Below are positions 4,981-26,569 of a stretch of 64,000 bases of DNA, in pieces. The stretch's first letter is position 1, and each line of letters opens with the position of its first letter. The translations under genes and the position numbers were made by a program. Location of the stretch: positions 320,001 to 384,000 of the forward strand of contig OZ219788.1 of NCBI GenBank assembly GCA_964291285.2, in the 5' to 3' direction. The notes beneath the pieces are model-generated. The model saw only the letters and a list, made by a program, of their open reading frames with translations, was not told the DNA's origin and ran no database searches. Source of the stretch: Alphaproteobacteria bacterium (GTDB lineage: Bacteria > Pseudomonadota > Alphaproteobacteria > Bin95).

Positions 4981-6289
4981 TCAGGCTTTGTGTTCGCGCC
5001 AGTTCGGCGGCAGCGCGATGCCGACGGCCTGGAAGACCTTTCCGACCTGGCCCTCGACATGGGTGCGGGTGGTGATGCGCTTGCCGTCCTTCTCGATGGT
5101 GGCCTCTTGCAGGCGGTCGAGATCGCGGATCAGGTCGTCCCATTCGACGTTGACGTTGGCGGCGGCGCAGCGGTCGGCCAGTTCCTTCTGGAGGACGAGC
5201 GCGAGGAAGGAGCAGAAGACGTGGCCGCGGATCGCGGCGTCGCAGGAGTGGTAGATCGGGCGGGTGCGCAACTGGGCCTTCGCCCGGCGGAACAGGTCTT
5301 CCACCGTGAGCAGCTCCCGGTAGCGGAGCACGGCATTGAGCGGCGTCATGCCGGCGTTGGTGCGCAGCACGAAGATGCCGTCGAAGCGGGCCTCCTCGGC
5401 GAGCTTGCCGGCGTCGATCTCGAACGCCTTGCCCGCGCCCGTGCGGCGCAGATAACGCCGGTAGGCGCTGTTGCCGATCAGCGCTTTCTCGCCGTCCGCA
5501 AGGCGGCGCTGGAGGCCGTCCACCACGGCCTGCCGGTCGGCGCGGTCCTTCTGTGCCTCCGCCTCGTTGCGGCACACGATGTAGCGCGCGCCGCCCACCG
5601 TGACTTCCTTCACGAACAGCTGCGTCTCGCCGCGCGGACGCTTGAGGAGCAGCGGCACAAAGGGCTTCGTGTCCTTCAGCACCACCTCGCGGACCACCTT
5701 CGTGCGCCGCTCGCGCGCGCCCAGGATGTAGTCCAGCCCCCGCTCTTCCAGCGCCGCTATCGTCGCCGCCGAGATCATCCCCCGGTCCGCCACCACGCAC
5801 ACACGACCGATCCCGAAGCGTGACCGAAGACGGTCCACGATCGGCAGCAGCACCCTGGTGTCGGCCGTGTTGCCCGGCAGCATCTCCGTGCACACAGGCC
5901 GGCCCTCGCCGTCCAGCACCACCGCCAGAACCATCTGGCGCAAGTCCGGGCGATGGTCCTTCGAGTAGCCGTGCGCGCCCAGCGTCTCGCCGCCCGCGCC
6001 GTGGAACGACAGCGTCGTGGTGTCCATGAACACCACAGACAGGTCGGTGAACAGGTCCCGCCTGTGCTCGAACAGACGCTCCTCGATCCCGTCCTTCACG
6101 CAGCGCGGCGCAAGCGCGCCTTCCGCCGGCGCCTCCAGCTCCTCCCCGAGCCAGGCCATCGCCCGATACAGCTGATGAAGCCGCAGCCCCTCGATCCCCT
6201 CGATCGCGTAGTCGGCCATCCACTTCTCGCACGACCGGTCCGAACCCGACACGAACAGACGGTGCAGAACGCTCACGAACACCGCGCGC
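4981..6289 (-). pseudogene. IS1634 transposase, 3' part
   Basis: VFMDTT, GYSKDHRPDLRQ, VVADRGM, YRELLTVEDLFR, IRGHVFCSFLAL; its N-terminus lies at 28104-28440. Confidence 0.9.
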
Positions 6290-6408
6290 CGCACCTGTCG
6301 GTTCTAACCTGTTGATACAGCGTCTGTTTTTCCTCGTGCAACAGCGGGTCAGGGGTGCAACTGCAACCGCAATGTGCCCCGCCTGCAAATGGATGCAGGA
6401 GGAAATCC

Positions 6409-7530
6409 ATGCCCATCGTACGCCTCAACGAGAGCCGGATCGAGGCCCTTGAATCCCGAAAGGCGCCATATGATGTCCGCGACGCAGAGCTGAAGGGCTT
6501 CGGCGTCCGCATCCTGCCTTCGGGCAGCAAACGCTATTTCATTCACAGCCAGCATCAGGGCCGGCGCCTCTGGAAGACCGTGGGCGACGCCGGCAGCATC
6601 GGCTTCGACGAAGCCCGCCGGCAGGCAACGGAACTGCTTGCCGCCATCCGGCGCGACGAACCCGCCGCGCTTCCCGAAGACAGGCTCTTCGAGGCCGTGG
6701 CGGAGGAAGTCTTCTCCCGCTACGGGCGGCACTGGAAGCCCGGAACCATGAAGGTCAACCGGGGCTATCTGCGCAGCACGATCCTTCCCCGGTTCGCCGG
6801 GATGAACATCGCCGACATCACGAAAGCCGACGTGCAGCGCTGGTTCGCGTCCCTTCATGCCACGCCGGTGGCGGCCGACCGGTCGGCGCCGATCCTGTCC
6901 GTCATCATGCGCCAGGCCGAACTCTACGGCTACCGCCCCGAGGGCAGCAATCCCTGCACCGGCATCCGCCGCTACCGGCGCAAGGGACGGGAGCGGTTTC
7001 TTTCGGCGACCGAGCTTCGCCGCCTCGCGCGCGTGCTCGGAGATCATGAAGACCGGCATTCGCGCTGCGTCGCATTCATCCGCCTGCTGCTGCTGACCGG
7101 CTGCCGCAAGAGCGAGATACTGACCCTGCAATGGTCCGACTGCCGCGAGGGGCGCCTGTTCCTGCGCGACGGCAAGACCGGGCCCCGGACCGTGTGGCTG
7201 TCCTCGCCCGCGCGCGCCGTCCTGGACGGGCTTGCCCGGCAGGGCAAATGGGTCTTTCCCTCGCCGCAGAGGCAGGGGCCGGTATCCGCAACCGTCTTCG
7301 AGACCTTCTGGTGGCGGGTCCGGGAGGAGGCGGGGATTGCCGATGTGCGCCTGCATGACCTTCGGCATACATATGCCAGCATCGCCATCATGGGGGGCGA
7401 GACCGTCACGGCGACGGCGCGGCTGCTCGGGCACAACGATGCGCAGACAACACTGAAATACGCTCATTTGTCCGACCGTTCGGTCCGGGAGGCCGCCGAC
7501 GCCCTCGGCTCCATCCTCGGGGAGAGCTGA
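6409..7530 (+). CDS. Tyrosine recombinase/integrase 1 with N-terminal arm-binding domain
   Basis: RBS AGGAGG; DAELKGFGVRI arm domain; catalytic R (TGCRKSE), K (KTG), HDLRH, LLGH, Y (KYAH). Confidence 0.93.
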   Translation: MPIVRLNESRIEALESRKAPYDVRDAELKGFGVRILPSGSKRYFIHSQHQGRRLWKTVGDAGSIGFDEARRQATELLAAIRRDEPAALPEDRLFEAVAEEVFSRYGRHWKPGTMKVNRGYLRSTILPRFAGMNIADITKADVQRWFASLHATPVAADRSAPILSVIMRQAELYGYRPEGSNPCTGIRRYRRKGRERFLSATELRRLARVLGDHEDRHSRCVAFIRLLLLTGCRKSEILTLQWSDCREGRLFLRDGKTGPRTVWLSSPARAVLDGLARQGKWVFPSPQRQGPVSATVFETFWWRVREEAGIADVRLHDLRHTYASIAIMGGETVTATARLLGHNDAQTTLKYAHLSDRSVREAADALGSILGES

Positions 7531-7533
7531 TCC

Positions 7534-8679
7534 ATGCCGAGGCGGAAAAGGCTCACCGACGCCGGCATCGCAAGGCTTCGGGCCGGGGCGCGCGAATATA
7601 CGGTCTGGGATACCGGGGTCGCCGGGCTCGGGGTCAGGGTTCGCCCCTCCGGCAGCCGGACGTTCATCTACCATCGCAAGACGGCCGACGGGTTGCGGAA
7701 GATGTCCTTCGGTCCGGCAGCGCTGCGCAAGGTCGCGGATGTGCGCCGCGCCTGCATGGAGGCCGCGACCGGGGCCGCCGACGCGGACGCAGCCTGTCGC
7801 GAAAGGGCGCCGCTGTTCGGGAATTTCGTGGCCGGTCAGTGGGAGGCGGATTGTTTCGAGCGCTGCAAGCCGTCCACGCAGAGGAACTTTGCCGGCATTC
7901 TGAGACGGCAGCTGCTTCCGGCCTTCGGCTCCCGGCGCCTCGACCGCATCACCCGCAGCATGGTGCTCCGCTGGTTCGAGGCTTGCAGCCGGACCGCGCC
8001 GGGGGCGGCCAACGCCGCCCTCGCCCTGCTGCGGCAGATCCTCAACCACGCCATCGCCTGCGGGTACATCGAAACCAACCCGGTGCGCGGCATCCGCCGC
8101 AATCCCGGCCGGAAGATGACGCGCTTCCTGTCCCGAGAGGAAATCACACGGCTTCACCGTGTCCTCGATCGGTATGCGCAAGGGACGGTCTCGCAGGCTC
8201 AGCAGGCCGACATCATCCGCCTGCTGCTGCTCACCGGCTGCCGCAAGGGTGAGATCGTGTATTTGCGCCGGGAGGAAGTGAAGGACGCCCGGCTCGAACT
8301 TGCAGACGCCAAGACGGGACCGAGAACGGTCCTGCTGAACGCGCCGGCACGGGAGATCGTCGCGCGCCGGATGCGGCAGGGAAACGGCCCCTGGGTCTTC
8401 CCCTCCGTCAGGGACCCGTCCCGGCCCCGATGCCGGGAGCTTCCCCTCTGGTATCGGGTTCGGCGCGAGGCCCGCATAGAGGACGTGCGCCTGCACGACC
8501 TTCGCCATACCGTCGCCAGCCAGGCGGCGATGAACGGCGTGCCGCTGCCGGTCGTCGCTCGCCTGCTCGGACACGGCAATGTGCGCATGACGATGCGCTA
8601 TGCCCATGTCGGAGACCGCGAGATCGAGGCGGCGGCGGAACGGGTCGGGCGGGCGATTGCAAACTTGATGGCGAAGTGA
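7534..8679 (+). CDS. Tyrosine recombinase/integrase 2
   Basis: WDTGVAGLGVRV arm domain; TGCRKGE, KTG, HDLRH, LLGH, RYAH. Confidence 0.93.
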   Translation: MPRRKRLTDAGIARLRAGAREYTVWDTGVAGLGVRVRPSGSRTFIYHRKTADGLRKMSFGPAALRKVADVRRACMEAATGAADADAACRERAPLFGNFVAGQWEADCFERCKPSTQRNFAGILRRQLLPAFGSRRLDRITRSMVLRWFEACSRTAPGAANAALALLRQILNHAIACGYIETNPVRGIRRNPGRKMTRFLSREEITRLHRVLDRYAQGTVSQAQQADIIRLLLLTGCRKGEIVYLRREEVKDARLELADAKTGPRTVLLNAPAREIVARRMRQGNGPWVFPSVRDPSRPRCRELPLWYRVRREARIEDVRLHDLRHTVASQAAMNGVPLPVVARLLGHGNVRMTMRYAHVGDREIEAAAERVGRAIANLMAK

Positions 8680-8759: not shown

Positions 8760-11897
<3,138 letters not shown>

Positions 11898-11899
11898 CG

Positions 11900-12449
11900 G
11901 GAAGGGACAGTCAACTGGTTCATGACGCGACGGATCATCAGGTCTTTGTTGGCCGGTGCGCTCTCGGCAATCAACGGGGTGAGCCGGTCAGCACTCGGGG
12001 ATCAAGCCGGCGCGCGACGCACTCCTGCGCCAGATAGGGCAGGAAGAGGAGCGCAGATGCGTTTGTAGTCGTCGGTGACGGACGGCCCTTACCAATGAAG
12101 TAGAGCAGATGCACCACCTCCTCCTCACAGCTGCGGCAGAGCGGTTCGCCGGACATGGTCCGCTTGATGTTGCGACGATAGCGTCCAGGGCATCGCTGCG
12201 CTGGTTGCCGAAGAGCGGCGATGCCTCGCCTCTCGCTACGAGAACGCGTCTCGGGTCCTTGATGGCATGGGTTGCGCGGTCGGCGTCGAGTGCACCGACA
12301 GCCGGTTTCACGCCGGCCGGCCTTTCCATGCGGTTTTCGTCGTATTCCAGGAAAAGACGCCACATCTCGGTATTGGCCGAGCTGATGTCGGAAACAGCCG
12401 AGCCGGTATCGCCGGCCGGTTCAACCATATTCCGGATTATCTTCGTCAT
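11900..12449 (-). pseudogene. Degraded RhuM/Fic-Doc family gene
   Basis: Fragments in several frames: WRLFLEYDE, RGEASPLFGNQR, GEPL, HLLYFI, eroded HPF-DGNKR region. Confidence 0.6.
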
Positions 12450-13563
12450 CGCGCAGGACGCTCTCCAGTTGGGGGTTCAGCAGCTTCCATCGCTGACGTA
12501 CCCGCTCGAGATCACCCTTGAGGATGACCGGCACCCGGTCCTTATGGGCCTGAACCACGCGCTCGTAATCGGCCTGTTCCAGAACCGCCGCGACCGACTG
12601 CCATTGCCCGTCGATTTCGGTGCGGAACCTGATCGTCCCGTCCACATCTTCCTCTTTGCGTTCCAGGACACGAACGAAGCCATACAGAAGCACATCGGGC
12701 CTTGGCGCACGCTCTCGCAGGGAGCGCGCGGCCTCGCGCAGCAATACGGCATCCTTCGATCCGAACTGGGAAACCGACGGCGGCGTCTTCACCGGCCGCG
12801 TCCGTGCCCACGAGACGCTGATATCCAGCTTCGGGAACGGTTCGACGATTCTGGCAAGCGCCTCACAGAGATTGGCGCTCACCCCGCTGGATACTGCCTC
12901 TCCGAAGGCACCGCCATCGTCGGAACCCGCCCGCTCTGCCGCCCGACGTACCGCGGCCAGCGCCTCGACAAGCCGTTTCGTCATCCGGCGAAAGATCGGC
13001 GCGTTAAGGTCATCCGAAGCCTCATCCTCGAACAACATTAGCATGGGCGGCGGCATGGCCGGTGTCAGCAATGTCACCACAAAACTGCCCTGGTCCGTCT
13101 GCCCAAGCCGCATCTGCCGCAAAAGGTCCGCCGCGTCCCTGTTTGCACGAGCACGGTACACCGGCCGCGGGTCATGAAGCGAGCACGCCGCCGCCAGCAC
13201 CAGGTCGCTGGCGCCATCGATCAGGGTCACGCCGTCGTTCAGTCCCAGGCTGCCGTCGTCGCTCTCCGCCGCCCGGATGCGAATCGCATCGCGGTCCGCT
13301 GTCGTGAGCGCACGGTAAACGGTCAACGTGTCCTGGTCGGCTACCTGCGCGAAGGTCTCGATCAACGCCGCCACGGCACTTGCATAGTCCCCGAGGCGCG
13401 TCGTCAGCGGCACGACGATTTCCGGCAACGTGTCGCCGACATAGATGTCCGAATGCTCGCGATACGAGTCGCAGCGGCTCCAACCCGCGATGCGGGCGTA
13501 GGCGGACAGCGCCGCCGGTGAAATCGCCAGCAGCGCGTCGCGGTCTTGAATGCTGACTTGCAT
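12421..13563 (-). CDS. Hypothetical protein (380 aa), partner of the DUF4365-like gene
   Basis: Clean ORF overlapping the upstream gene's stop; GQTDQGSFVVTL motif; beta-rich C-terminus. Confidence 0.8.
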   Translation of the reverse strand: MQVSIQDRDALLAISPAALSAYARIAGWSRCDSYREHSDIYVGDTLPEIVVPLTTRLGDYASAVAALIETFAQVADQDTLTVYRALTTADRDAIRIRAAESDDGSLGLNDGVTLIDGASDLVLAAACSLHDPRPVYRARANRDAADLLRQMRLGQTDQGSFVVTLLTPAMPPPMLMLFEDEASDDLNAPIFRRMTKRLVEALAAVRRAAERAGSDDGGAFGEAVSSGVSANLCEALARIVEPFPKLDISVSWARTRPVKTPPSVSQFGSKDAVLLREAARSLRERAPRPDVLLYGFVRVLERKEEDVDGTIRFRTEIDGQWQSVAAVLEQADYERVVQAHKDRVPVILKGDLERVRQRWKLLNPQLESVLRDDEDNPEYG

Positions 13564-14063
13564 CAGAGTTCTCCCGTCCTGGATTGCTCCATCAGCCTTT
13601 GCAGGGCCTCAACATCGAGTATGTTCCGCTCGGGGATATGAACGGTAACGGTCTTCTGACCGGCGACTTCATCATGGCCCCGTTGCAGGCTCAGCCAGTA
13701 GGCGCGACGCCGCAGGATGAGAGCCTCCTCGGTCACGGACAACCAGCGCGCTTCGTCTTCGGGAAGCTCCAGCACCACGAGCAGCCGAGGCGTCTGCGTC
13801 CCGGCACGTAGATCGTCGTAGTTCTTCAAGGACAGTCGAAACGGCAGGACGCCGTTTCTTGGCCCGCTGAGATCGGCAGTGGCCTTGAGTTGCAAGTCGA
13901 GGGCCGGGCGATATGTACCTCCCGCCTGAACCCGCAGGTCGACGCTGTCGCGGTCCGGCGCCGGCACAGAAGTCAGAAACCCTGCACGCGCCGCCAGCGC
14001 CTTGACATAGACCAGGGACAGCCCCTCCTTCCTGTCAGGAGAGGTGAGCAGGCCGCCAGTCAT
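13563..14063 (-). CDS. DUF4365-like PD-(D/E)xK fold protein
   Basis: D-D-SVD...LDLQLKAT, NYDDLR, PRLLVVL, AYWLSL motifs. Confidence 0.75.
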   Translation of the reverse strand: MTGGLLTSPDRKEGLSLVYVKALAARAGFLTSVPAPDRDSVDLRVQAGGTYRPALDLQLKATADLSGPRNGVLPFRLSLKNYDDLRAGTQTPRLLVVLELPEDEARWLSVTEEALILRRRAYWLSLQRGHDEVAGQKTVTVHIPERNILDVEALQRLMEQSRTGEL

Positions 14064-15679
14064 GCAATCTCTCCGACAATCTGTTCAGCATCCCGAAGTC
14101 GGACTTCGCCGGACATCAGTTTGGGAAGCAGCCCGTGTAGAATGCCGACGAGAGAATGACTTTGCCGGGAAGCCGCACTTGCTCGAGCGATAGGCGGACG
14201 AACCAGATTTCCGAACGCGACGGCGACTTGCTCTGTCGGGCACGCAAGTGGGAATTTTTGCAAGGCTTGGGCCTGCACCCGCTGGCGACCGCTTGTACCG
14301 GTCATGTTCTGAATGGCAAATTCGCGGAAACGAAAACTTCGGGCGAGACAATATGCGAATTCATACGGAAGCGGAGACTTGGGGCGCAAGACAATGTACT
14401 CTGTGGATCCCCAACCTACCTCGCCTTCCTGCAAGAAATCGACATAGGCCGTCTTTCCGTTCTCTAGGCATGGCGTGATACGAGCCATAAGTGTATCGCC
14501 GTTCATGAACTTTGTCCCCGAGCCAAAGGGACGAGCAGAGATGGTATCAGGTATATGTCCCTTGGCTGGCATGTTCGCCATATCGAGGTACGGAGCGGTT
14601 TGCCCCTTGGGCAAACGCCGCAGGGGATTGACTGAGATCAGATCGTCGAGCGGGCTCACTTCCCACCCCTCCGGTATCTCGCCGATTTCGGAATTGGCGA
14701 AGCGGTCGGGAAACAGTTTCCATATTTCGGGAGGCAGATAGGGCGCACGCCCTTCCATCTTCGCCCGGACCGGCCCGAAATCGACGAACCAGTCCTTGAA
14801 GATCGCCCGCGCCATCGCCTCCAGCGTCCCGTTCATGCGCCGGTTCAACGCGATCTTGTCGTCCAGCGCGCCGAGGATGCCCGCAATCGCCCGCTGCTCG
14901 GGAAGGGGTGGTAAATCGATGTTCAGATTCTTGATATCCGAGGGCCTTATTGACGGATAAGCCGAAGTACTGTGTTCGGCAATGGTATGAAGCTGGTTGA
15001 TAATTCGTTCCTGAACAAGAAACCAATAGATGAAACCAGTGTCAGCAATGTCTTCACGCGCACGAAACACCGCAAAGCCAGTAGATGCGAGAAAATTCTC
15101 TGGAACATCCCGTAGCAACCCGAAGTGCCTCTGATTGGGCCGGACGGTTGAGAATACGATGTCGCCCGGTTCAATTTTGCGACGCGCACGGTCAGGCAGC
15201 TTGTCTTTGTTCAGCTTCAGGCATTGAATCCTCTCTATTCGGTTATCTGTGATGCTGCCTGTATCAAGGTAATTGACAAATGGCCAATCTTCCTTCGGGG
15301 AATATGTTGCTTCATTCATTACGGTGCATTCGCCAAGTCGTATCCTGTGCCAATGATTGGCAGGAACTAGCGGTTTGGCCAGTACCACATGGTCTCGCTC
15401 AATTTGCTTCCGGAAGGAGCCCGGCACGTCATCCCAGACGAACAGGTCCACCCGGAATGGGAGACTGCTTTCCTCCAACGCTTCCCGGAGGTCGGAAACG
15501 GCGCGCTTCTGTTCGGGCGTCGCGAACACCACCATATCGATGTCGGATTGGGGGCGAGAGGTCCAACTGACCCGGGAACCGTAAGCCCAAGCCTTGGTGT
15601 CCGGGAGATGGCGTTCGAGCAACGCCAGAATATCTTTGCGTTGCCCGGCGGTGATGTCGATGGAGAAGTTTATTCCCAT
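14060..15679 (-). CDS. hsdS: Type I R-M specificity subunit with N-terminal MNT nucleotidyltransferase domain
   Basis: aa 1-100: AYGSR-x-SDID and PFRVDL; then two low-GC TRDs separated by PPLPEQRAIAGILGALDDKI. Confidence 0.9.
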   Translation of the reverse strand: MGINFSIDITAGQRKDILALLERHLPDTKAWAYGSRVSWTSRPQSDIDMVVFATPEQKRAVSDLREALEESSLPFRVDLFVWDDVPGSFRKQIERDHVVLAKPLVPANHWHRIRLGECTVMNEATYSPKEDWPFVNYLDTGSITDNRIERIQCLKLNKDKLPDRARRKIEPGDIVFSTVRPNQRHFGLLRDVPENFLASTGFAVFRAREDIADTGFIYWFLVQERIINQLHTIAEHSTSAYPSIRPSDIKNLNIDLPPLPEQRAIAGILGALDDKIALNRRMNGTLEAMARAIFKDWFVDFGPVRAKMEGRAPYLPPEIWKLFPDRFANSEIGEIPEGWEVSPLDDLISVNPLRRLPKGQTAPYLDMANMPAKGHIPDTISARPFGSGTKFMNGDTLMARITPCLENGKTAYVDFLQEGEVGWGSTEYIVLRPKSPLPYEFAYCLARSFRFREFAIQNMTGTSGRQRVQAQALQKFPLACPTEQVAVAFGNLVRPPIARASAASRQSHSLVGILHGLLPKLMSGEVRLRDAEQIVGEIA

Positions 15680-16086
15680 ATCTGTTCGGTCATCGTTTGG
15701 TAGAGGCCTATGGCGTCGTCGATAAACGTGGGCATCAATGCCAGGCAGGCTTTCGCTTTCTCGCCGTCGTAATCGTGCGACGTATTGATACGCGCTTCCG
15801 CATATTCAAGCCAATCTTCCAACGGAGAAGCGAACAGGCTGTTTTCATGTGCAAGCCTGAAGAGAGGCTTGGGACTGTTGGGTACTTCGGCAATGCCGAG
15901 TTTCTCGTTAAGGTATCTTTTCAGTACCTTCCACAAGTAGTCGTAGCAGGTCTCGAAGCGCTGAATGACCGACTCGGCGACCCCTTCCCGGGTCATTTCG
16001 GATAGTCCTTCGTCGGGCGACTGATAGTTGTCATGTTGCTCCTCCAGGCGTTTCAAGGACAACTCGAATTTTCCATAGTCGATCAT
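15670..16086 (-). CDS. HEPN-domain protein (nucleotidyltransferase substrate-binding, HI0074-like)
   Basis: IQRFETCYDYLWK, SPKPLFR, Rx4H motif RINTSH followed by DYD. Confidence 0.88.
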   Translation of the reverse strand: MIDYGKFELSLKRLEEQHDNYQSPDEGLSEMTREGVAESVIQRFETCYDYLWKVLKRYLNEKLGIAEVPNSPKPLFRLAHENSLFASPLEDWLEYAEARINTSHDYDGEKAKACLALMPTFIDDAIGLYQTMTEQIWE

Positions 16087-16108: not shown

Positions 16109-16356
16109 TCACCAGGAAGAGCGGCGCAAGACCAGCGCCTCAACGGTTCCGGCCGCATCCGGCTCCCCGTCAGGCAACCCTTCGGGGTCGCCGTGCTTTC
16201 CCTGCCAGGACTCCGTTCCCGTATCGAGGTCGATCTTCTTCACAATCATGCGCTCGGGAGACAGATCATCGTAACCCCCTTCGTAGCCGTCCACCACGAC
16301 ATGCAGCACGGGCGGATAGCCGCCAGGCAGCTCGATCAATTCCGCAACCGTCATGC

Positions 16357-16360
<4 letters not shown>
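16109..16360 (-). CDS. Small acidic hypothetical protein
   Basis: ATGA overlap with hsdM; MTVAELIE...[12 protein letters not shown]. Confidence 0.6.
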
Positions 16361-17961
<1,601 letters not shown>

Positions 17962-18179: not shown

Positions 18180-21100
18180 TCATTGTGTGGCGATTCCGTA
18201 CAATTTTTGAAACCGGAGGTCGCCAGAAATTCCGCAATTCCCGGCGCACAGAGCGTCAAGCAATTTCTTGAGACCGGGCTTGTTATAGTCCGGCAGAACA
18301 TCGATTACCTTATTCAGCACCTTGAGCAATGGCTCCGGATGCTGTTTCGCGCAGCCATTCCTGTTGAGAACGAAGAAGCTATGCCCGACGCCGCCGCTGC
18401 CTTCCACGGGCCGCAAATATGTCAGCCACCATTCCGCCGCCTGAGGAAATGCATCGCCGCACTCCGCAAGCATCTTCAGTATCGCTTCCGAGATCTTCGC
18501 AGTATTGCGGCCCTGCTCTCGCGGCCAGTAGCTGCAAAGCCAGCGGTGCAATTTCTCGTCCCAGATCCGCTGCCGTTCGTCAGGTGTCCCGGTGAGGCGC
18601 CGCCTCAGGCTCCCAAGCACAGTCACCAGCCCTTGTTCGGGCATGGGGGCGACAACGTCGCGAATCTCTTTCTCAGTCAGATCTCCCGGCGCATCAAGGC
18701 AGACCGCCATGAACAGGTCTCTCAGTCGGCGCATTCTCCGGTCTTCAAGCCTGTCGTCGTGCAGGATTTCGAGAAACGGCGCCCTGATGGCTTTCAGGAG
18801 GTCCGGACCCAGACCTGGCGACCAGCTGTATGCAGACCATAGGTCGACAGCTTCCTGTGACTTCAGGCAGGCGAGGCGCGCGATCAGGTGCTGCCGGGTC
18901 CACTCAGCGTCGACCGCAAACAGCGGGCGCAATCTGGTCGCCAGAAGCACGCGGCCTGGATGCCCGAGCGGGTCTTCGGCCATGGCGTCGAAATACGGCC
19001 GGACCGGTGGAGGGAATCCCGCTCCGGCTGGCAGTTCGTATTTCGACAGCCGGGTCAATGCCGCTTCCGCCAGCTTTCCGGCCGGATGGTTCAAGGCGTT
19101 CGTCAGGGTTTCATTCTGGTCGGCCATCTCCGATTCGCCCTCGCCCTTTCCGACCCAGGATTTCATCCAAAGGACACCGAATTCAGCTTCCCGATCGGTT
19201 TCCCATGCGTCCGCAAGCTGTTTCACGAAGCCCGCGACGGCGGACGCTACCTCGCCGAACAGCTCGCCGGGAGCCTCGGCAAGGATTCTTGCCGCACAGG
19301 CGTGCAGTTCCGCCGGCCGCTTTGGTTCCGGCAGCTCCCAGAGGAAATCCCGCCAGTACCCTGCAGGCCATTTGCCCTGTTTTCCGAGCTGTCGCAGCGC
19401 GGAAAAAACCTCTGCCGGTTTCCGGGCAGCCAGCCCTCGCAGTCCGTCCTGAACGATTTCCCCGGTATCGAGCGCCACCACGATGTCTTCGACCGATCCC
19501 TTGAGGAGATGCTTGGGCGCATAATCTTCGATGCCGATTCGTTCATACTTTACCTCGCCAAAAAATTCATCGATCTCTCCCTCGATTTCCTCCATTTTCT
19601 GGGTTATTGTTTCAGCCATCGCTCTTGATTTCTTGTCCAGCTTTATCCCGGACATGCCCAGCATGTGCAGGAACAATGCCTGTTCTTTGCGCAACCCTTC
19701 GTCACTGCCGAAGGATTCCCGGATTTTATTCGATTTCGGTCCAGCGTGAATTGCGTCAATGATGTCGCTGCGGAGATCTCGGGGTAACCGCTTGCCCGCC
19801 AATCTCAGAAAACGCATCGTTTCGCGCCGCATATCGAAGTCCCAGAGACCGAGGTTTCGACCTCCCAGAAGCAATTTCTGGGCAAGCCGAATATCGGCTC
19901 TCGGGTTTTCGGTCAGCGCGTGCAGCGCCAGCCTCCCGAACAGCGGCTCTTCGGAGTCCGCCCAGCGAAGGAGAAGATTGTACGCGCGTCGGCTCTCGTC
20001 GGGAACCAGCGCAAGATAACTGTCCCGCGCCAGATCGATGAGGCGGGTCCAGTTGTCGAAATCGTTGTTTTGCTCGTGAGGCGCGATCGACGGCCGATAC
20101 AGGTACGACCGCTGGTAGACATTGCCATCGGCCTTACCCAGGGAAAGGGCGTGTTCGAGATGATCGGTCAGCGTCTCGGCGTGTCTCGAAAGCACTTCCC
20201 GGTCATCGAGAATAGCCTTGAATAGCGCCCAAACCCTGTCGCATGCCGACATCAATTCGAGATGTCCGCATGTATCGATGGGCTGCGGCGCTTGCGGGGT
20301 ATTCTCGTAATTCAGCCGTACTTGCCGGACCATGGAAAGACCCGGTCGGACGACGAGACGCGGCCGGATACTCTCCATGACCTTGTCCTCGATGAGCCTG
20401 CGTTCGTCGGGGGACATCGCGGCCCGATGACGGTCGGAAAGCCAGAGCCCGTTCCAGGGATCATCGGGCCTGCTGCCCAGAAGAACGGTCCAGAGCAGTC
20501 GCAGCCTGTCGGGAATGTCCGGAAGCGCGGAAGCCCGCTCAGTCAGACGGCTCTCGACCTGCTGGCGAAGAAGAGGGTGGAGATGAGCGCCGTTCCGAAG
20601 CGCCCAGGCCAGCAGTTGCGGCACATGCAGATGGTTGGCCAGCCAAACCGAGAGATGGTGCCTTGTCCTATCCAGATTGTAGGGATTCACCGATTCGAGA
20701 CCGGTATCTACGAGATGCCGGTCCGTCCCGTTAGCGGCAGAGCGCAGCAGACCCTTTTCCGCGAACATGTCGAGCCACTTCTCGAACTTTGCATGGTCCT
20801 CCTCGTTCGACATGGGAGGGGCTTCGGCAAGCGCCTGTGCGGCCGATGCGTCCTGTAGCGCCCAGACGACCCGTTCCACAACCGGCCCGGCCGGCATCTT
20901 GTTAATCTCGTCGATGGCGATCCGGGAACGGGCTCGAAGGGGATCGCTTCGGATCCGCGCCCATTCAATCAGTGTGTCTGCGAGAAGGCGGTGTCCGTCC
21001 CGCTCGTCATAGAGGATCGGTTCGACATTCTTCGCGACCCAGGCGTCACGCGCCCTGGATATCCCGGCTTCGGAACCATCCATGGCGGCGAATGCCCAAG

Positions 21101-21836
21101 CCATTCCGAAGCCCGCGCCCTTTGACCGCTCGGCGGCAAGGGCGTCGACCATGTACCCCATGACAGGATCGTCGAGGCTGTAGCCGACGAAGACGACCGA
21201 GAATTCGCGAAACAGTTCGGTGACGAACCTCGCCGCCCAGCGCTCGGTCAGATATGCGCGCCCGAAATCTGCCGCGGTCAGCACCAGGTTCGAGCCATCT
21301 TCCTTCGGTGCGATGCGGCCGTGCAGATGCACCAGGCTCGACCAGGCATGAGGCTTGGGTATCGGAAGCCGGGGCGCGGCATCGACCGTCAGGGATTCTT
21401 CCGCCGCTTCGGCAAAGCGGTTGTCGAAATTGGTGGTAACAAGTCGGACGCCGCTGTCGAAATTGGTGGTAACAGGTCGGACGCCGCGTTCAGTCCGCGA
21501 CAGCTTGAGCAATGCCTTGTGGAGTTTCAGGTCACCGCTTCGCGGTCGAGAAAGCCGGTCGATGACCGCACCCCGCAAGTGGTTCGCGCCCAGGCGGCGT
21601 TCCAGAAGCCCGAGCGCCCTGTCCCAGGCCCCGCTACATAGCGCTTGCCGTTCGGCGGGATCGGGTTCGATGTGGTTGGCATCATATACATGTTTCACGA
21701 GGGCTTTGAAGCTCGGCAGGTCAGACCCTTCTGCCATCGAGACCCCGGCGCCGCAGAAGAAAACGACATTGCCGTCGTCCAGCCCGTTCAGGAGGGGCGC
21801 CGGAATGTCCGGGCCGTCTTCAATCAGTTCAGGCAT
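18180..21836 (-). CDS. SIR2-domain anti-phage protein, Dsr1-like
   Basis: GPDIP...VVFFCGAGVS, TTNFD, HLHG, DFGRAYLTERWAARFV, FVGYSLDDP; long helical C-terminus. Confidence 0.85.
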   Translation of the reverse strand: MPELIEDGPDIPAPLLNGLDDGNVVFFCGAGVSMAEGSDLPSFKALVKHVYDANHIEPDPAERQALCSGAWDRALGLLERRLGANHLRGAVIDRLSRPRSGDLKLHKALLKLSRTERGVRPVTTNFDSGVRLVTTNFDNRFAEAAEESLTVDAAPRLPIPKPHAWSSLVHLHGRIAPKEDGSNLVLTAADFGRAYLTERWAARFVTELFREFSVVFVGYSLDDPVMGYMVDALAAERSKGAGFGMAWAFAAMDGSEAGISRARDAWVAKNVEPILYDERDGHRLLADTLIEWARIRSDPLRARSRIAIDEINKMPAGPVVERVVWALQDASAAQALAEAPPMSNEEDHAKFEKWLDMFAEKGLLRSAANGTDRHLVDTGLESVNPYNLDRTRHHLSVWLANHLHVPQLLAWALRNGAHLHPLLRQQVESRLTERASALPDIPDRLRLLWTVLLGSRPDDPWNGLWLSDRHRAAMSPDERRLIEDKVMESIRPRLVVRPGLSMVRQVRLNYENTPQAPQPIDTCGHLELMSACDRVWALFKAILDDREVLSRHAETLTDHLEHALSLGKADGNVYQRSYLYRPSIAPHEQNNDFDNWTRLIDLARDSYLALVPDESRRAYNLLLRWADSEEPLFGRLALHALTENPRADIRLAQKLLLGGRNLGLWDFDMRRETMRFLRLAGKRLPRDLRSDIIDAIHAGPKSNKIRESFGSDEGLRKEQALFLHMLGMSGIKLDKKSRAMAETITQKMEEIEGEIDEFFGEVKYERIGIEDYAPKHLLKGSVEDIVVALDTGEIVQDGLRGLAARKPAEVFSALRQLGKQGKWPAGYWRDFLWELPEPKRPAELHACAARILAEAPGELFGEVASAVAGFVKQLADAWETDREAEFGVLWMKSWVGKGEGESEMADQNETLTNALNHPAGKLAEAALTRLSKYELPAGAGFPPPVRPYFDAMAEDPLGHPGRVLLATRLRPLFAVDAEWTRQHLIARLACLKSQEAVDLWSAYSWSPGLGPDLLKAIRAPFLEILHDDRLEDRRMRRLRDLFMAVCLDAPGDLTEKEIRDVVAPMPEQGLVTVLGSLRRRLTGTPDERQRIWDEKLHRWLCSYWPREQGRNTAKISEAILKMLAECGDAFPQAAEWWLTYLRPVEGSGGVGHSFFVLNRNGCAKQHPEPLLKVLNKVIDVLPDYNKPGLKKLLDALCAGNCGISGDLRFQKLYGIATQ
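21422..21487. repeat. 33-bp in-frame tandem duplication inside the SIR2 domain
   Basis: TGTCGAAATTGGTGGTAACA(A/G)GTCGGACGCCGC twice. Confidence 0.95.
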
Positions 21837-22260: not shown

Positions 22261-25200
22261 ATGGTGGCGACGGTCTTCAACCTGACCTCGGCTTCCTCGA
22301 CGGTGCACTATTTCCGGCGCGAGGGGCACGGGCTCGGGCCGAACCTGCCGGCGAACGACGACGAGGCGGGCGACTACTACGCGCGCAAGGATGACGAGCA
22401 CCGCAAGGCGAGCCGGTGGCGGGGCAGCGGGGCGGCGGCGCTGGGGCTGACGGGCCATGTCGAGCCGGTGGAGTTCCGGCGTGTGCTGCAGGGATACGTT
22501 CCCGGCACGGACATCCGGCTGGGGCGGCTGCGCGACGGCGAACACGAGCACCGCCCGGGTGTGGACATCACGTTTTCGGCGCCGAAGTCGGTGTCGCTCG
22601 AGGCGCTGCTCGGCGGTGCGGGTTCGGCCAGGGCGATGCGGGCGCACGATGCGGCGGTGCGGGCGACGCTGGACTACATCGAGACACGGCTCTTGCGAAC
22701 CCGGCGCTGGAGCCGCGAGGAGCGGCGCTCGGTGCAGGTGAATGCGCCCATGCTGGTGGCGGCGACCTTCCGGCATATCACGAGCCGCAACAACGACCCG
22801 CAGCTTCACACCCATTGCGTGGTCGCGAACATGACGCGCGACGGCGGGCAGTGGCGGAGTGCGGAGACCGGTCTGCTGCGCCGGTCGGAGAAGCTGGTCG
22901 GGGCCTTCTACCGCAACGAGCTGGCGCACCGTCTGCGCCGTGAGGGTTTCGCGCTGCGTCCGTCGATGATCGGGCGGGTTCCGGGGTTCGAGATCTCGGG
23001 CTGGCCGCGTGCGGTGCTGGAGGCGTTCTCGAGCCGGCGGCAACAGATACTGGCCTACATCCGGGAGAAGGGCTGGCGCTACGATGCGCACACCGCGCAG
23101 GCGGCGACGCTGGCGACGCGGGCGCGCAAGAACGAGCCGCGCCGGGCGGAGCTTGAGGCGCTGTGGCGGGCGTTTGCCGAGGAAAATGGCCTCGCCAGGC
23201 GGACGCTGCGGAAGATCGGGGTGCGGCATGCGGCGCCGCCGACGGCGCTGGAGATCGCCTGGCGGGCTCTTGAGCAGCTGGAGGAGCGGGCGAGCGTCTT
23301 CCCGGCGCGGGACGCGCTGGCGCTGGCGCTGGCGCTGGCGCATTCGCCCGGCCTCTACCGGCTTGAGGAGATCGAGGGGGCCTTTGCGGAGCTTCGACGG
23401 GACAAGCATTTGCTGCCGGCGATCCGGCGCGGGGCGGGCGAGGCCTGGACGACGGCGCGGGCGGTCAACGCCGAACGCGAGGTGCGCGAGCGCACGATCG
23501 CCAATATCGGTGCTGTCAGGGCGCTCTCCGAAGCTCCCGTCCCCGGAGAGGCGCTGGAGGGCCTGACCGGGGGCCAGCGCGAGGCGGTGCGGCTGATCCT
23601 GGAGAGCCGGGACCGGGCGGTCGGGGTGCAGGGCCATGCGGGCACCGGCAAGACGGTGATGCTGCGCCGGGCCGTGTCGTGCATGGGAGAAAGGCGGGTG
23701 CTGGGACTGGCGCCGTCGGCCTCGGCGGCGCGGACGCTGTCGCGCGAAACGGGCCTCGCCTGCCGGACGCTGCAATGGTTCCTGACGCGCTGCCAGGAGG
23801 TGTCCGACGGGGTGGCGGACGCAAGGACGCTCGCCGCGCTGAGAGAGCGCCATGGCGGCGCGGTGGTGGTGGTGGTGGACGAGATGTCGCTGGCGGGCAC
23901 GGCGCAGGCGCGCGCGCTGCTGCGGATTGCCGAGCGCCTCGACATTGCCCGGCTTGTGCTTGTGGGCGACAGCCGGCAGCTGCGGGGCGTGCAGGCGGGC
24001 CAGCCCTTCCGGCAGATGCAGCAGGCGGGCTTGGGCGTCGCGGAGATGGACGAGGTTCGCCGGCAGCAGGACCCGGACCTGCTGGCCGCCGTCCAGGACA
24101 TGATCGAGGGCGAGCCGGGCGCGGCGCTGGAGCGTCTCGGAGGCAACCTGCGGGAACTGCCGGCGGAGGAGATCGCGGGCATGGCGGCCGCGCTCTGGCT
24201 GCGGCTTTCGCCCGGGGCGCGGGCGGGTACGGCGTTGCTGGTTCCGACGCGCGCGCTCAGGGCCGAGGTCGAGGAGGCGGTGCGCGAAGGCCTCGAAGCC
24301 GAGGGCGCCCTGCACGGGTCCTCCATCGGGATCGAGACGCTCGTGCCCCTCAACCTCACGCGCGCGGAGACGGGGTCGTGCGGCTGATACCGAGCTTCTC
24401 CCACGGCCCCTCAACCTCACGCGCGCGGAGACGGGCGACGTGCGCAACTGGCGCGAGGGCGACATCGCGCTCTTCAACCGCGAGCGGAAGAACTACCGCA
24501 TCCGCAAGGACGACGCCTGCACGGTGATGGAGGTGGAGGAGGACCGGGTGATCCTCGCCCATCCCGATGGCCGGCCGCGCCACCTGAAGCCCGGCGGCGA
24601 CCTGCGCTACCGGCTGGACCTGTTCGAGGCGAAGACGCTGCGGATCAGGGAGGGCGAGCAACTGCGCTGGACGCGCAACGACAGGGAGCGCGGCCTCGTC
24701 AACGGCGACCGTGTGGAGGTGGCCGCCATGGGAACCGGAGCGCTCCGCATGCGCCTCTCCGACGGGCGGGAGATGCGATTCGCGCGCGACGACCCGCAGC
24801 TTCGTCATCTTGCATACGCCTATGCGTCCACCGTGCATGCGGCGCAGGGGCAGACGCACGACCGTGTGGTCGCGGTGCTGGACACAGGCGCGGGGCCGCT
24901 GGTGAACCAGCAGACGCTCTACGTGCAGCTCAGCCGCGCGCGGGAAGAGGCGCTGGTGCTGACCGACAACCGCGAGCAGCTTGTGGAGACGCTGGAGGCG
25001 AACACGGGCGAGCGGCTGACGGCGCTGGAAGCCATCGGCGAGACGGAGACGATGAAGGCGCCGGCGAAGCGGACGGTCTCCGGGGAGGCGGCGTCTGCGT
25101 TCCTTGACGGCCTGCGCGCGGAGCGGGAGCGCCGCGCCGAAGCGGAGGCGGCCTTGCGCCGGCTGGCGGAGGCCGAAGCAGCGCTTGCCGCAGCCCGCGC

Positions 25201-26569
25201 CCATGCGCAGGAAGCCGGATACACCTTCGCCGCCCTGCCGGCGGTCGATCCGGACGACGGACAGACCCTTCAGGACCGTCTCGCGGCGGCCAAAATTGTG
25301 CAGGAAGCGGCGCATGATGTCTCGGCTGCCGCCCATGCGGTGCTGGAGGCGGCGAAGGCGGCGGACCGCGTCCCGCCGCTCGACGATGCCGCGATGGAGG
25401 CGGCGAAGACCGGCGAAACCGAGGCAGCGGCGCGCCTTGTGGCATACCGGTCGCTGGAGACGGCCTTGACGGCGGCGAACAGGGCGTCCGGACGGCTGGC
25501 GCCCGCAGGCGCGCTCCGCGACAAGGATATCGACGGGGCTTCGATGCAGCGCCATGGCGCCGCCGCCCGGGAGGCGGCCGCCGCCTTCGACGCCCTCGCG
25601 CAAAAGGCGCGGGCAGCGGGCGAGGCGGCGCTGGCCCGGCGCGCGCGGGAGAGGGCTTCGGACCTCGGGCTGGCGGCGCTGCACTGGAGCTACAGGCTGG
25701 CGGGCCACCGGTTCGCGGTGGCGCGGCTGGCCGAGCGGGACATGGCGCCGCCGCACACGGTCGGGGACGTGCGGCGCTGGCAGGACCTGCGCCAGCGCCA
25801 GGCGGACGCGCGGACCGGGGCGGCAGCCGCGGCCGAGGCGGTCGCGCCGGAGAGCGCGGACGCGGCGGCCCGGTGGCGTGAACAGGCGGCGGACTACCGC
25901 AAGCAGGCCGGCGCGATACGCGGCTCGCTGGCGGAACTGGAGGGGCTGAAGACGCTGGTGCGGACCGCGGAAGCCGCGTCGGACGACGCGGCGGCATGGA
26001 GCGCGGCGGCGGGCGCGGCGGAGACGATCCGGAAAGGCTCCGGCCGGGGTCTGGAGGACGAGGCCGCGCGCGTGCGTGACGAGGAGGCGCGCCGCCGACA
26101 GGAAGGGCGCGAGGCGGCGCGGGCACGTTTCGAGACCCTGAGCTCGGAATGGGACGCGTTCGAGAGGAAGGTCAGGGCCGGGGGGCGGGTCGGCTTTGCG
26201 GACAAGCGCAGCCGGCAATATGTCGACCGCGCGCGGCGGCTGGAGGCGGACCCCGATCTCGATGCGGAAGCGAAGGAGACGCTCGCGGCGTTCCTGCACG
26301 AGCACGATGTCGTGCGCCCGAAGGTCGTCCGGCGCTGCCGGGAGCTGTTCGCGCAGTGGAACGCGGTCCGCGCAACGGCAAGGGCCCGCGGCGTCGGCCG
26401 GTTCATCCCTCCGGAGAGCGCGGAGGTCGTTGCGGGGATGCGCAAGCTCGCCGCCGGGAGCCCGGAGCACCTGACGCGCAGACAGAAGGAGACATTCGAG
26501 ACGATCACCGAGGAATACGCCCTCCATGTCGAGCGGCAGCGGACATGGGTGATGACCATGAGGCCGTGA
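22261..26569 (+). pseudogene. MOBF (TrwC/TraI-like) relaxase-helicase, frameshifted by a 61-bp insertion
   Basis: DYY, DITFSAPKSVS, H-TSR-DPQLHTH, GHAGTGKT, DE, TVHAAQG, YVQLSRAR; removing 61 bp gives a single 1415-aa ORF. Confidence 0.9.
24345..24435. repeat. 30-bp direct repeat flanking a 31-bp foreign segment
   Basis: GCCCCTCAACCTCACGCGCGCGGAGACGGG at 24345-24374 and 24406-24435. Confidence 0.95.

Follow-up and report, generated by a model that had tools for sequence, protein, structure and literature searches.

Class I HepT/MntA (type VII) toxin-antitoxin pairs are defined by an RX4HXY motif in a HEPN protein of family PF01934 or PF08780, encoded beside a PF01909 nucleotidyltransferase (MNT) with the motif GSX10DXD (PMC7641770). 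What makes these systems add or remove the adenylyl mark is named there as a critical question, and the word "restriction" is absent from the main text of that paper. MNT can also be active as a fusion domain, as reported for FhepTA, which occurs both fused and split, with high identity between the two (PMC13000451).

In PrrC/EcoprrI and Ronin, as in the locus described here, a toxic effector gene (in our case a predicted one) is embedded in a type I restriction-modification (R-M) locus. The effector of the PrrC system has been proposed or shown to fire under anti-restriction proteins (PMC12707154), and in Ronin a toxin held by HsdMS is triggered by Ocr/ArdA (10.1101/2023.04.06.535777). Type I operons often have other genes embedded in them (Payne et al. 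2024, 10.1101/2024.01.29.577857). PrrC-like roles were proposed for HEPNs in R-M operons by Anantharaman et al. 2013 (PMC3710099), who also list occasional fusions of HEPN-M to "nucleic acid methylase domains". The term "nucleotidyltransferase" has no hit in the main text of Payne et al. and "HsdS" none in that of Anantharaman et al.; the passages of both describe no antitoxin-HsdS fusion, and no description of an MNT-HsdS fusion was found in the literature searched. Here we report such a fusion. As judged from its motifs, the toxin-antitoxin is of the already known HepT/MntA kind; what appears to be new is the joining of the antitoxin to HsdS.

Results

A HEPN-MNT pair embedded in a type I operon

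The window, a stretch of 64,000 nucleotides from an alphaproteobacterial contig (OZ219788.1), carries a minus-strand operon in the order hsdM, 83-aa ORF, HEPN, MNT::hsdS, two PADLOC candidates and hsdR:

16357..17961, minus strand: hsdM, 534 aa, methyltransferase subunit of the type I system (Pfam N6_Mtase and HsdM_N; PADLOC MTase_I, E 5e-216; NPPF at 297)
16109..16360, minus strand: 83-aa ORF with no assigned function, its start overlapping the hsdM stop; optional, found in several related loci
15670..16086, minus strand: HEPN of the HI0074/PF08780 type, 138 aa, predicted toxin (Q42/E45, R99-x4-H104-x-Y106)
15374..15679, minus strand: MNT domain of the HI0073 type, residues 1-102 of the fusion, predicted antitoxin (G34-S35-x10-D46-x-D48, D78)
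14060..15373, minus strand: HsdS part of the fusion, with linker, TRD1, conserved helix region, TRD2 and C-terminal helix
13563..14063, minus strand: PDC-M02A (DUF4365), embedded defence candidate (Pfam, PADLOC)
12421..13563, minus strand: PDC-M02B, embedded defence candidate (PADLOC, E 3e-115)
11988..12449, minus strand: partial match to PDC-S23, probably a fragment (PADLOC, 82/331 model positions)
8760..11897, minus strand: hsdR, 1045 aa, with a HindI-like C-terminal domain (PD-x-ExK, GSGKS, DEAH and QAIARVNR motifs intact)

The type I R-M genes are present: hsdM, an hsdS with two TRDs and two conserved helices, and hsdR, all with intact motifs. A scan for promoters and terminators gave signal at or below shuffle expectation. 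The 83-aa ORF in the hsdM-HEPN gap, and PDC-M02A/B with the PDC-S23-like fragment in the hsdS-hsdR gap, had gone unmentioned in the original prediction. The ORF has no match in Pfam, NCBIfam or PADLOC and falls only into unnamed clusters of the Atlas; homologues occupy the same place at L008, L009, L013, L017, L058, L059, L065, L066, L070, L073 and L092. PDC-M02A/B are candidates of the type collected by Payne et al., and PDC-S09 models match MNT.

The HEPN protein belongs to PF08780 (NTase_sub_bind; 76.7 bits, cut-off 31.8), its sole Pfam domain, and is without a PADLOC match at E<=1. As originally predicted, the gene lies upstream of the fusion and overlaps it, its last 10 bases covering the MNT start, and encodes an Rx4H motif followed by a Tyr (RINTSHDY at 99-106, R-x4-H-x-Y); QRFE lies at 42-45. 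RX4HXY is kept in 120/120 HEPN homologues listed. With motif roles taken from PMC7641770 and PMC11586414, Y106 is the AMP acceptor predicted by analogy, and Q42/E45 appears, by motif position, to correspond to the Q44/E47 metal site of the Legionella HEPN.

MNT and HsdS share one reading frame

A single stop-free ORF (14060-15679, minus strand, 539 aa) holds both parts, HsdS opening with a nucleotidyltransferase domain of about 100 aa and continuing in frame through two TRDs, as had been claimed. Pfam places Polbeta at residues 21-100 (35.9 bits, cut-off 26.9), NTP_transf_2 at 20-97 and Methylase_S at 128-287, and PADLOC Specificity_I spans 107-537 (E 3e-112). The catalytic motif is an exact GS-x10-DxD (GSRVSWTSRPQSDID at residues 34-48), with D78 as the third aspartate. 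MNT scores 23.7 bits for PF01909 (cut-off 21) and 34.8 for the NCBIfam MntA equivalog, under its whole-protein cut-off of 60; the domain finishes in a strand and is without the C-terminal alpha4 helix. By these motifs and the Pfam pair, HEPN and MNT are a class I HepT/MntA pair as defined in PMC7641770, and the original assignment holds.

TRD1 (~113-255), the conserved helix region (~256-345) and TRD2 (~346-478) have boundaries estimated from conservation and from an AlphaFold2 model, which resembles HsdS structures (mean pLDDT 88.5, pTM 0.71). Its N-terminal domain matches Haemophilus HI0073 (1no5) with a TM of 0.86 by target length and an rmsd of 1.9; HI0073 is both the best PDB sequence match of MNT (E 3e-13) and its best fold match. 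A predicted complex of MNT::HsdS with two HEPN copies scored 0.01 against a mark of 0.32, controls not having been folded, and counts neither for nor against contact between them.

An error of assembly is an improbable source of the fusion, because P0003 and locus L017, from another record, are 98% identical over residues 1-125 and are fused too. Contigs of three sequencing runs from one study cover all 30 bins of the locus; no contig piece among the 24 listed (967 others) bridges the MNT-TRD1 linker, and these contigs therefore speak neither for nor against the fusion. Translation as two proteins was rejected as a general feature: the window's linker contains no ATG, GTG or TTG, and there is no conserved start at the junction. 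Of the 58 fused junctions, 24 contain an in-frame ATG within 26 codons, but its position varies and a Shine-Dalgarno match is mostly absent; a separate HsdS start is possible at L057, L078, L103 and L246. Thus, as far as the junctions tell, the fusion is probably made as one protein.

The fusion recurs and outlasts exchange of the TRDs

The survey that the original prediction had called for found many such architectures. With the window's protein as query, 948 of 1071 candidates matched at E<=1e-3, and PF18765 occurs together with PF01420 in 118 of the 120 listed; with a divergent query 700 of 779 matched, and again 118 of 120 listed have MNT and HsdS domains. Klebsiella/Raoultella plasmid hits (query 30-538) were not accepted as fusions, the one fetched having no MNT domain, and the viral contigs yielded one weak locus, unfused. 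Across 119 homologues, median identity to the window protein is 74% in MNT and 69% in the conserved region, versus 13% in TRD1 and 15% in TRD2; for P0006 it reaches 99% in MNT at 13-14% in the TRDs. These comparisons indicate that MNT stays while both TRDs are swapped.

Fused MNTs number 58, versus 14 that are unfused and adjacent, and the fusion partner is nearly always HsdS; 107 of 213 MNTs are stand-alone, in mixed neighbourhoods. Fused and unfused forms are interspersed in the MNT tree, where the fused label switches 23 times, at least 5 of them forced by starred branches; this is a quick, unrooted tree of 103 columns in which origins and losses are not told apart. Several divergent MNT lineages include fused members. 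A sample of 301 genomes from the window's class gave 32 hits to this HsdS family; MNT is or formerly was in frame at 13 of them (8 of 20 genomes), and at least 17 of the 32 are without MNT, so this R-M family can do without it.

A cultured example of the fusion is found on plasmid pZMOB01 of Zymomonas mobilis (ATCC 10988), where the protein is annotated only as "restriction endonuclease subunit S", a name that conceals the antitoxin. Acetobacter plasmids carry hsdM-HEPN-MNT-hsdS-hsdR with MNT unfused, and in one of them the MNT stop overlaps the hsdS start. The hsdSp knock-out of Z. mobilis ZM4 (PMC8432527) was set aside as evidence: its genes are arranged differently and none of the 29 MNT hits is on a ZM4 plasmid, so the viability of that deletion is uninformative here.

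Both partners are under selection and tend to decay together

Among fused loci whose hsdS frame is unbroken or open-ended, 46 of 52 keep all four of the HEPN residues E45, R99, H104 and Y106. At fused loci dN/dS is 0.116 for MNT and 0.124 for HEPN (6 disjoint pairs, dS about 0.5); for 19 stand-alone pairs the values are 0.21 and 0.18. By this measure purifying selection acts on both partners, and because a toxin gene should be deletable without cost, retention of HEPN points to use.

The patterns of damage suggest that the two partners tend to degenerate as a pair. In both cases of a stop inside MNT at fused loci HEPN is damaged (loss of Q42, E45 and the R4H histidine at L010, E45G at L148/L180), and at L169 and L170 HEPN is deleted and the MNT DxD has become DxE. 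Four HEPN-less fusions retain GS-x10-DxD (L011, L176, L259, L263); L011 and L259 are relic-like with no hsdM nearby, L011 holding just a C-terminal trace of HEPN. At the stand-alone locus L143/L172 an early MNT stop lies beside an intact-looking HEPN, so toxicity is not assured in every member.

Discussion

What is the pair for? We lean, with slightly less than even confidence, towards a back-up RNase embedded in the operon, with an antitoxin translated as part of HsdS and a trigger that is not specific to R-M. A class I HepT/MntA cassette of the HI0074/HI0073 subfamily sits in the hsdM-hsdS junction of one type I R-M family, its antitoxin turned into the N-terminal domain of HsdS. By analogy with characterised relatives, HEPN would be an RNase and the HsdS-borne MNT would spend ATP to AMPylate Y106 of each new HEPN; because MNT lacks the alpha4 docking helix, the contact between them is probably transient. 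The fused HsdS presumably still joins HsdM, since the HsdS N-terminus tolerates fusions; EcoKI engineered to have HsdM and HsdS as a single fusion is active (PMC3510504). Most likely, HEPN would act as a back-up growth-arrest effector, inherited and expressed along with the R-M system and released once AMPylation trails HEPN synthesis, through a drop in ATP, antitoxin turnover or lost translation of MNT::hsdS. The fusion may have arisen by easy stop loss in the overlapping junction and been kept because it does no harm, couples the amount of antitoxin to that of HsdS and supplants the hsdS start. Sensing the condition of the R-M complex need not be part of its role. Against the back-up RNase, the near-specificity of fusion for HsdS and its excess over the unfused adjacent form (58 versus 14) could reflect selection for physical linkage and not mere convenience, and the broken-hsdS loci considered below look as stricter coupling would predict. 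The broken MNT beside an intact-looking HEPN at L143/L172 and the four HEPN-less fusions with a catalytic motif also speak against it.

Alternatively, and in our view possibly but doubtfully, the fusion guards the R-M complex, combining the logic of PrrC and Ronin, its precedents, with new chemistry. MNT would work, or survive proteolysis, only in an unperturbed M2S1 core; binding of Ocr/ArdA or loss of assembly would halt AMPylation, HEPN synthesis would continue, and the unmodified RNase would abort infection. A covalent off-switch of the kind described in PMC7641770 would make continued MNT activity the gate, here placed on the R-M core. The joining of several divergent MNT lineages nearly always to HsdS, and the 13 of 32 hits with a present or former in-frame MNT, speak for a guard. 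Where hsdS is broken behind MNT, 4 of 6 fused loci have a damaged or absent HEPN, versus 6 of 52 otherwise (Fisher p 0.006, post hoc; the loci are not independent, three of the six coming from one genome, G274, and L178 being a near-copy of L167), and at L013 and L167 neither hsdM nor as much of hsdR as is visible shows a break. However, general decay also explains this difference, and HEPN looks intact beside bare MNT::TRD1 stubs at L178, in the window's genome, where an IS splits hsdS, and at L066/L068, where the same hsdS frameshift occurs in two assemblies. The L178 HEPN could be neutralised in trans by a stand-alone pair of the same genome (59/101 residues identical in MNT, 87/133 in HEPN). 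Moreover, the MNT-HsdS linker is short and poorly conserved (median 9% identity), a conserved MNT-TRD interface was not seen, and selection is similar on unfused copies, whether embedded or stand-alone. The proposed tie of neutralisation to R-M integrity or to Ocr/Ard/Stp-type inhibitors stays a hypothesis, and the intact-looking HEPNs at L178 and L066/L068 argue against a strict need for a whole HsdS. Copies of the cassette that are unfused, within the operon or on their own, are common. Addiction to the whole locus would be mechanistically weak for a covalently silenced toxin; passages of PMC2993543 make no direct statement about post-segregational killing by type I systems. We likewise regard as rather unlikely the fuller claim of a widespread, undescribed enzymatic guard, in which an HsdS AMP-transferase must keep marking HEPN, DNA mimics or M2S1 disassembly silence this writer and bring about abortive infection, and which evolved repeatedly from different MNT lineages and outlasts specificity changes.

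A selfish or neutral passenger seems improbable: a mobile toxin-antitoxin cassette in a tolerant junction (a "genomic sink"), its HEPN kept by recent spread and useless to the host, with fusion as a ratchet in which the stop and then the hsdS start were lost. The junction does gather cargo, with stacked HEPN-MNT pairs (L057, L060, L095, L236), tandem MNTs (L212, L213, L226), the 83-aa ORF and a Fic (L263), and embedding in type I operons is frequent in general. HEPN-less and catalytically dead relics exist, and GC is 51-59% in HEPN and MNT versus 68-69% in hsdM and hsdR. Yet both partners at fused loci show dN/dS of 0.12 at dS about 0.5, the freely deletable toxin is intact at 46 of 52, and the cassette outlasts complete exchange of both TRDs; the purely neutral fusion that had also been envisaged fits poorly with such selection. 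Finally, it is very improbable that MNT has been co-opted for modifying R-M subunits or other proteins (e.g., by reversible AMPylation of HsdM or HsdR) with HEPN secondary, for although four HEPN-less fusions keep the motif and the PADLOC HsdS model PDLC03138 includes MNT at positions 2-96, two other fusions (L169, L170) have lost the motif, L011 and L259 are relic-like, and at least 17 of the 32 HsdS hits in the class sample are without MNT. Passages of the PADLOC paper (PMC8565338) give no account of how PDLC03138 was made, and we do not take the model as a sign of a validated methylation motif for a fused HsdS.

Comparison with known systems

A recurrent antitoxin-HsdS fusion offers a concrete hypothesis for the trigger and purpose of HepT/MntA, and cultured, low-risk hosts with the same gene order provide a natural comparison, fused in Z. 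mobilis ATCC 10988 (pZMOB01) and unfused on the Acetobacter plasmids. Deleting such an hsdS to ease transformation would remove the antitoxin too and could be toxic.

The pair shares its motifs and Pfam families with Shewanella SO_3166/SO_3165 (Yao et al. 2020, PMC7641770) and differs in that HEPN precedes MNT, MNT is without alpha4, and MNT is fused to HsdS in a type I operon. HEPN matches HI0074 (1jog) at E 7e-6 and Legionella 8xdj weakly (E 0.039); in the Legionella HEPN-MNT (PMC11586414; 8xdj, 8xeo, 8xeh) MNT likewise lacks alpha4. Unlike the fusion here, the HI0073/HI0074 and Legionella pairs were solved as free two-protein pairs, and in FhepTA the fusion partner of MNT is the toxin it acts with, whereas here it is an R-M subunit. 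The layout is that of the embedded genes of Payne et al. 2024, same-orientation cargo between hsd genes. PrrC carries an N-terminal ABC-ATPase on its HEPN and is held by the R-M complex, whereas the HEPN here has 138 aa and no ABC domain; RonA of Ronin is a 61-aa membrane toxin, whereas for the pair here we predict covalent silencing by an enzyme within HsdS. If the fusion does guard the complex, it would be a third anti-anti-restriction mechanism beside PrrC and Ronin.

Results

In the window, an MNT antitoxin domain is encoded in frame with hsdS among the following genes:

18180-21836, minus strand: Dsr1-like sirtuin (Sir2); NCBIfam Dsr1 683 bits (below the cut-off of 1400), PADLOC E 4e-169
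16357-17961, minus strand: hsdM
16109-16360, minus strand: 83-aa ORF, no family match
15670-16086, minus strand: HEPN toxin; QRFE at residues 42-45, R-x4-H-x-Y at 99-106
14060-15679, minus strand: MNT::hsdS, 539 aa; Polbeta/NTP_transf_2 at residues 20-100, HsdS spanning about 107 to the C terminus, GS-x10-DxD at 34-48
12421-14063, minus strand: defence candidates PDC-M02A and PDC-M02B
between PDC-M02B and hsdR, minus strand: PDC-S23-like fragment
8760-11897, minus strand: hsdR

The original prediction of a HEPN gene beside an MNT fused to HsdS was correct: a single 539-aa frame holds both domains, and both motifs are present. Junctions from hsdM to PDC-M02B overlap by a few bases, except for a 22-nt gap ahead of HEPN. 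The predicted MNT::HsdS structure (pLDDT 88.5) matched HsdS structures and HI0073; its MNT terminates in a strand, without a further helix.

The sirtuin gene lies directly upstream of hsdM and has two more copies on contig C5 (88-90% identity), one interrupted by about 1.4 kb. The 83-aa ORF between hsdM and HEPN recurs in at least 11 other loci; its nearest Atlas clusters are unnamed, one being mostly viral. On either side of the defence cluster (4981-8679, 22261-26569) lie an IS transposase, a tandem pair of tyrosine integrases and a TrwC relaxase-helicase spread over two reading frames, as in an integrative mobilisable element.

Is the fusion a one-off? A query with residues 1-125 matched 948 of 1071 candidates (proteins of 296-944 aa), and 118 of the best 120 listed contained both MNT and Methylase_S domains; a divergent fused query matched 700 of 779, again with both domains in 118 of the 120 listed. 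The architecture is thus recurrent, and translation as two proteins, another doubt raised at the outset, is disfavoured: fused loci share no conserved internal start at the junction, so one polypeptide is likely. Both partners kept their catalytic motifs in all 120 listed homologues, a conservation partly built in because these are top matches. Median identities to the window protein form a more telling mosaic, being high for MNT (74%) and the conserved region (69%) but low for TRD1 (13%) and TRD2 (15%); in one homologue (P0006), MNT is 99% identical and the TRDs are unrelated. By record titles, fused loci come from Alphaproteobacteria, Binatia, Arenicellales and an acidobacterium. Plasmid pZMOB01 of Zymomonas mobilis ATCC 10988 carries hsdM-HEPN-MNT::hsdS-hsdR, and five Acetobacter plasmid loci have the identical gene order with MNT and hsdS unfused, the MNT stop overlapping the hsdS start in one.

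Other proteins of this HsdS family carry GIY-YIG (PF01541) or DUF559 nuclease-like domains (P0016, P0052, P0053, P0017, P0093, L264), DUF559 being inserted within the central conserved region in L264. We also observed HsdM naturally fused to HsdS (half S) in a 742-aa protein (L266:3065-5290) and a 331-aa chain with PF08780 and MNT domains (P0060).

The 254 surveyed loci yielded 213 distinct MNT domains: 58 HsdS-fused, 14 unfused but at most 1.5 kb from a separate hsdS (some of them extra stacked pairs), 107 stand-alone and 34 truncated or ambiguous; these shares are not population frequencies because locus queries were partly built from fused proteins. Stand-alone copies had mixed neighbours, including housekeeping genes, CRISPR-Cas, Mrr and Fic (73 of 111 candidate ORFs scanned). 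Two such cassettes adjoin CRISPR-Cas genes (L016, L114; Cas7 and Cas4, Cas3 HD). Elsewhere, different HEPN-MNT pairs are stacked between hsdM and hsdS (L057, L060, L095, L236), and L212, L213 and L226 encode tandem MNT-MNT::HsdS proteins, the second MNT of L226 lacking the first aspartate. At L263:1764-4700 (minus strand), hsdM and a Fic gene precede a divergent MNT::HsdS with an intact motif; HEPN was not detected there.

Among 301 genomes of the window's class, this HsdS family had 32 matches in 20 genomes. By our own reading, 13 (8 genomes; 5 matches from G274) have or once had an in-frame MNT, 2 have an embedded but unfused cassette and 3 are beyond judgement. Window-type MNT occurred in 10 of these 20 genomes versus 18 of the 281 others (p 9e-7, overstated since related genomes do not count as independent and one of the 10 scored under the search threshold). 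Across the phylum, 400 genomes gave two full-length matches to the MNT-containing PADLOC model at a strict threshold; thus, the fusion is uncommon overall. Genome G274 has six loci (L165-L170) with MNT fused or once fused to HsdS, in differing states of decay.

A quick unrooted tree was built from 186 MNTs over 103 columns, after 27 rows had been excluded as short, open-ended or unclear. On it, the fused label switches 23 times, at least 5 of them forced by starred branches, suggesting repeated fusion, fission or both. No claim rests alone on L153, a stand-alone row from G072, a genome marked as unpublished.

In fused loci, dN/dS was 0.116 for MNT and 0.124 for HEPN (6 disjoint pairs); stand-alone values were 0.21 and 0.18 (19 pairs). 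There were 52 fused loci that had 500 nt or more of upstream sequence and whose hsdS frame was unbroken or open-ended; HEPN residues E45, R99, H104 and Y106 were all kept in 46 of them, three lacked HEPN and three had it damaged. Both fused loci with a stop within MNT (L010, L148/L180) have damaged HEPN, and two fusions without HEPN (L169, L170) have DxE in place of DxD. Against a functional pair, stand-alone L143/L172 has an early MNT stop yet an intact-looking HEPN, and four HEPN-less fusions (L011, L176, L259, L263) retain the MNT motif. Overall, MNT::HsdS is a genuine and recurring arrangement that is subject to selection.

Is an intact HsdS needed to silence HEPN? Where hsdS is broken behind MNT, HEPN is damaged or absent at four of six fused loci (L013, L167, L168, L170) and intact at two (L178, L066/L068), versus 6 of 52 otherwise (post hoc Fisher p 0.006; three of the six belong to one genome). 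However, general decay would give the same pattern; at L170, MNT is dead and hsdM frameshifted as well. The window's genome contains L178 (G000:C3:93500-105800) as its second, divergent hsdM-HEPN-MNT::hsdS-hsdR locus, in which an IS, presumably IS5-like from its translated transposase, splits hsdS and leaves MNT::TRD1. L178 also carries a truncated extra MNT and a Schlafen/AlbA_2-RecG_C gene ahead of hsdR. The genome has a related stand-alone pair too, which might compensate.

Discussion

What could the fused antitoxin do? If HEPN is silenced covalently, it would be dangerous only when newly made, and classical addiction would be weak because losing the whole operon ends HEPN synthesis too. 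The decisive events would be those that halt MNT while HEPN synthesis continues. Generic triggers, namely ATP shortage, antitoxin turnover or failed translation of MNT::hsdS, would not depend on the state of the R-M system and would also serve unfused and stand-alone copies; we tentatively rank them first. A cyanobacterial MNT reportedly senses ATP. A guard function, plausible but less likely, would require Ocr, ArdA or disassembly of the R-M complex to inhibit or destabilise the N-terminal MNT, whose linker is short and variable. That the cassette is a selfish or neutral passenger is improbable, and action of MNT on R-M subunits more improbable still. The hypotheses are testable at once in cultured hosts.

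Published work describes HEPN genes in R-M operons and the PrrC analogy (PMC3710099) and gene embedding in type I operons (10.1101/2024.01.29.577857). Our literature searches, covering few subscription journals, turned up no paper describing MNT::HsdS; the supplements of both papers and of PMC7641770 could list it, and PADLOC's HsdS model PDLC03138 already contains it without comment. Known parts are thus joined in an apparently undescribed fusion.

Yao et al. (PMC7641770) reserve the name class I HepT/MntA for pairs of a HEPN (PF01934 or PF08780, with RX4HXY) and an adjacent PF01909 MNT with GSX10DXD, and demonstrated AMPylation of the tyrosine. The window pair has both signatures, and by analogy would have RNase and AMPylation activity. 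PMC11586414 describes a Legionella HEPN-MNT pair whose MNT has low modification efficiency; its HEPN matches that of the window weakly in sequence (E 0.039). Like the window MNT, the Legionella MNT lacks helix alpha4, and the Legionella Q/E metal site apparently corresponds to Q42 and E45 of the window HEPN.
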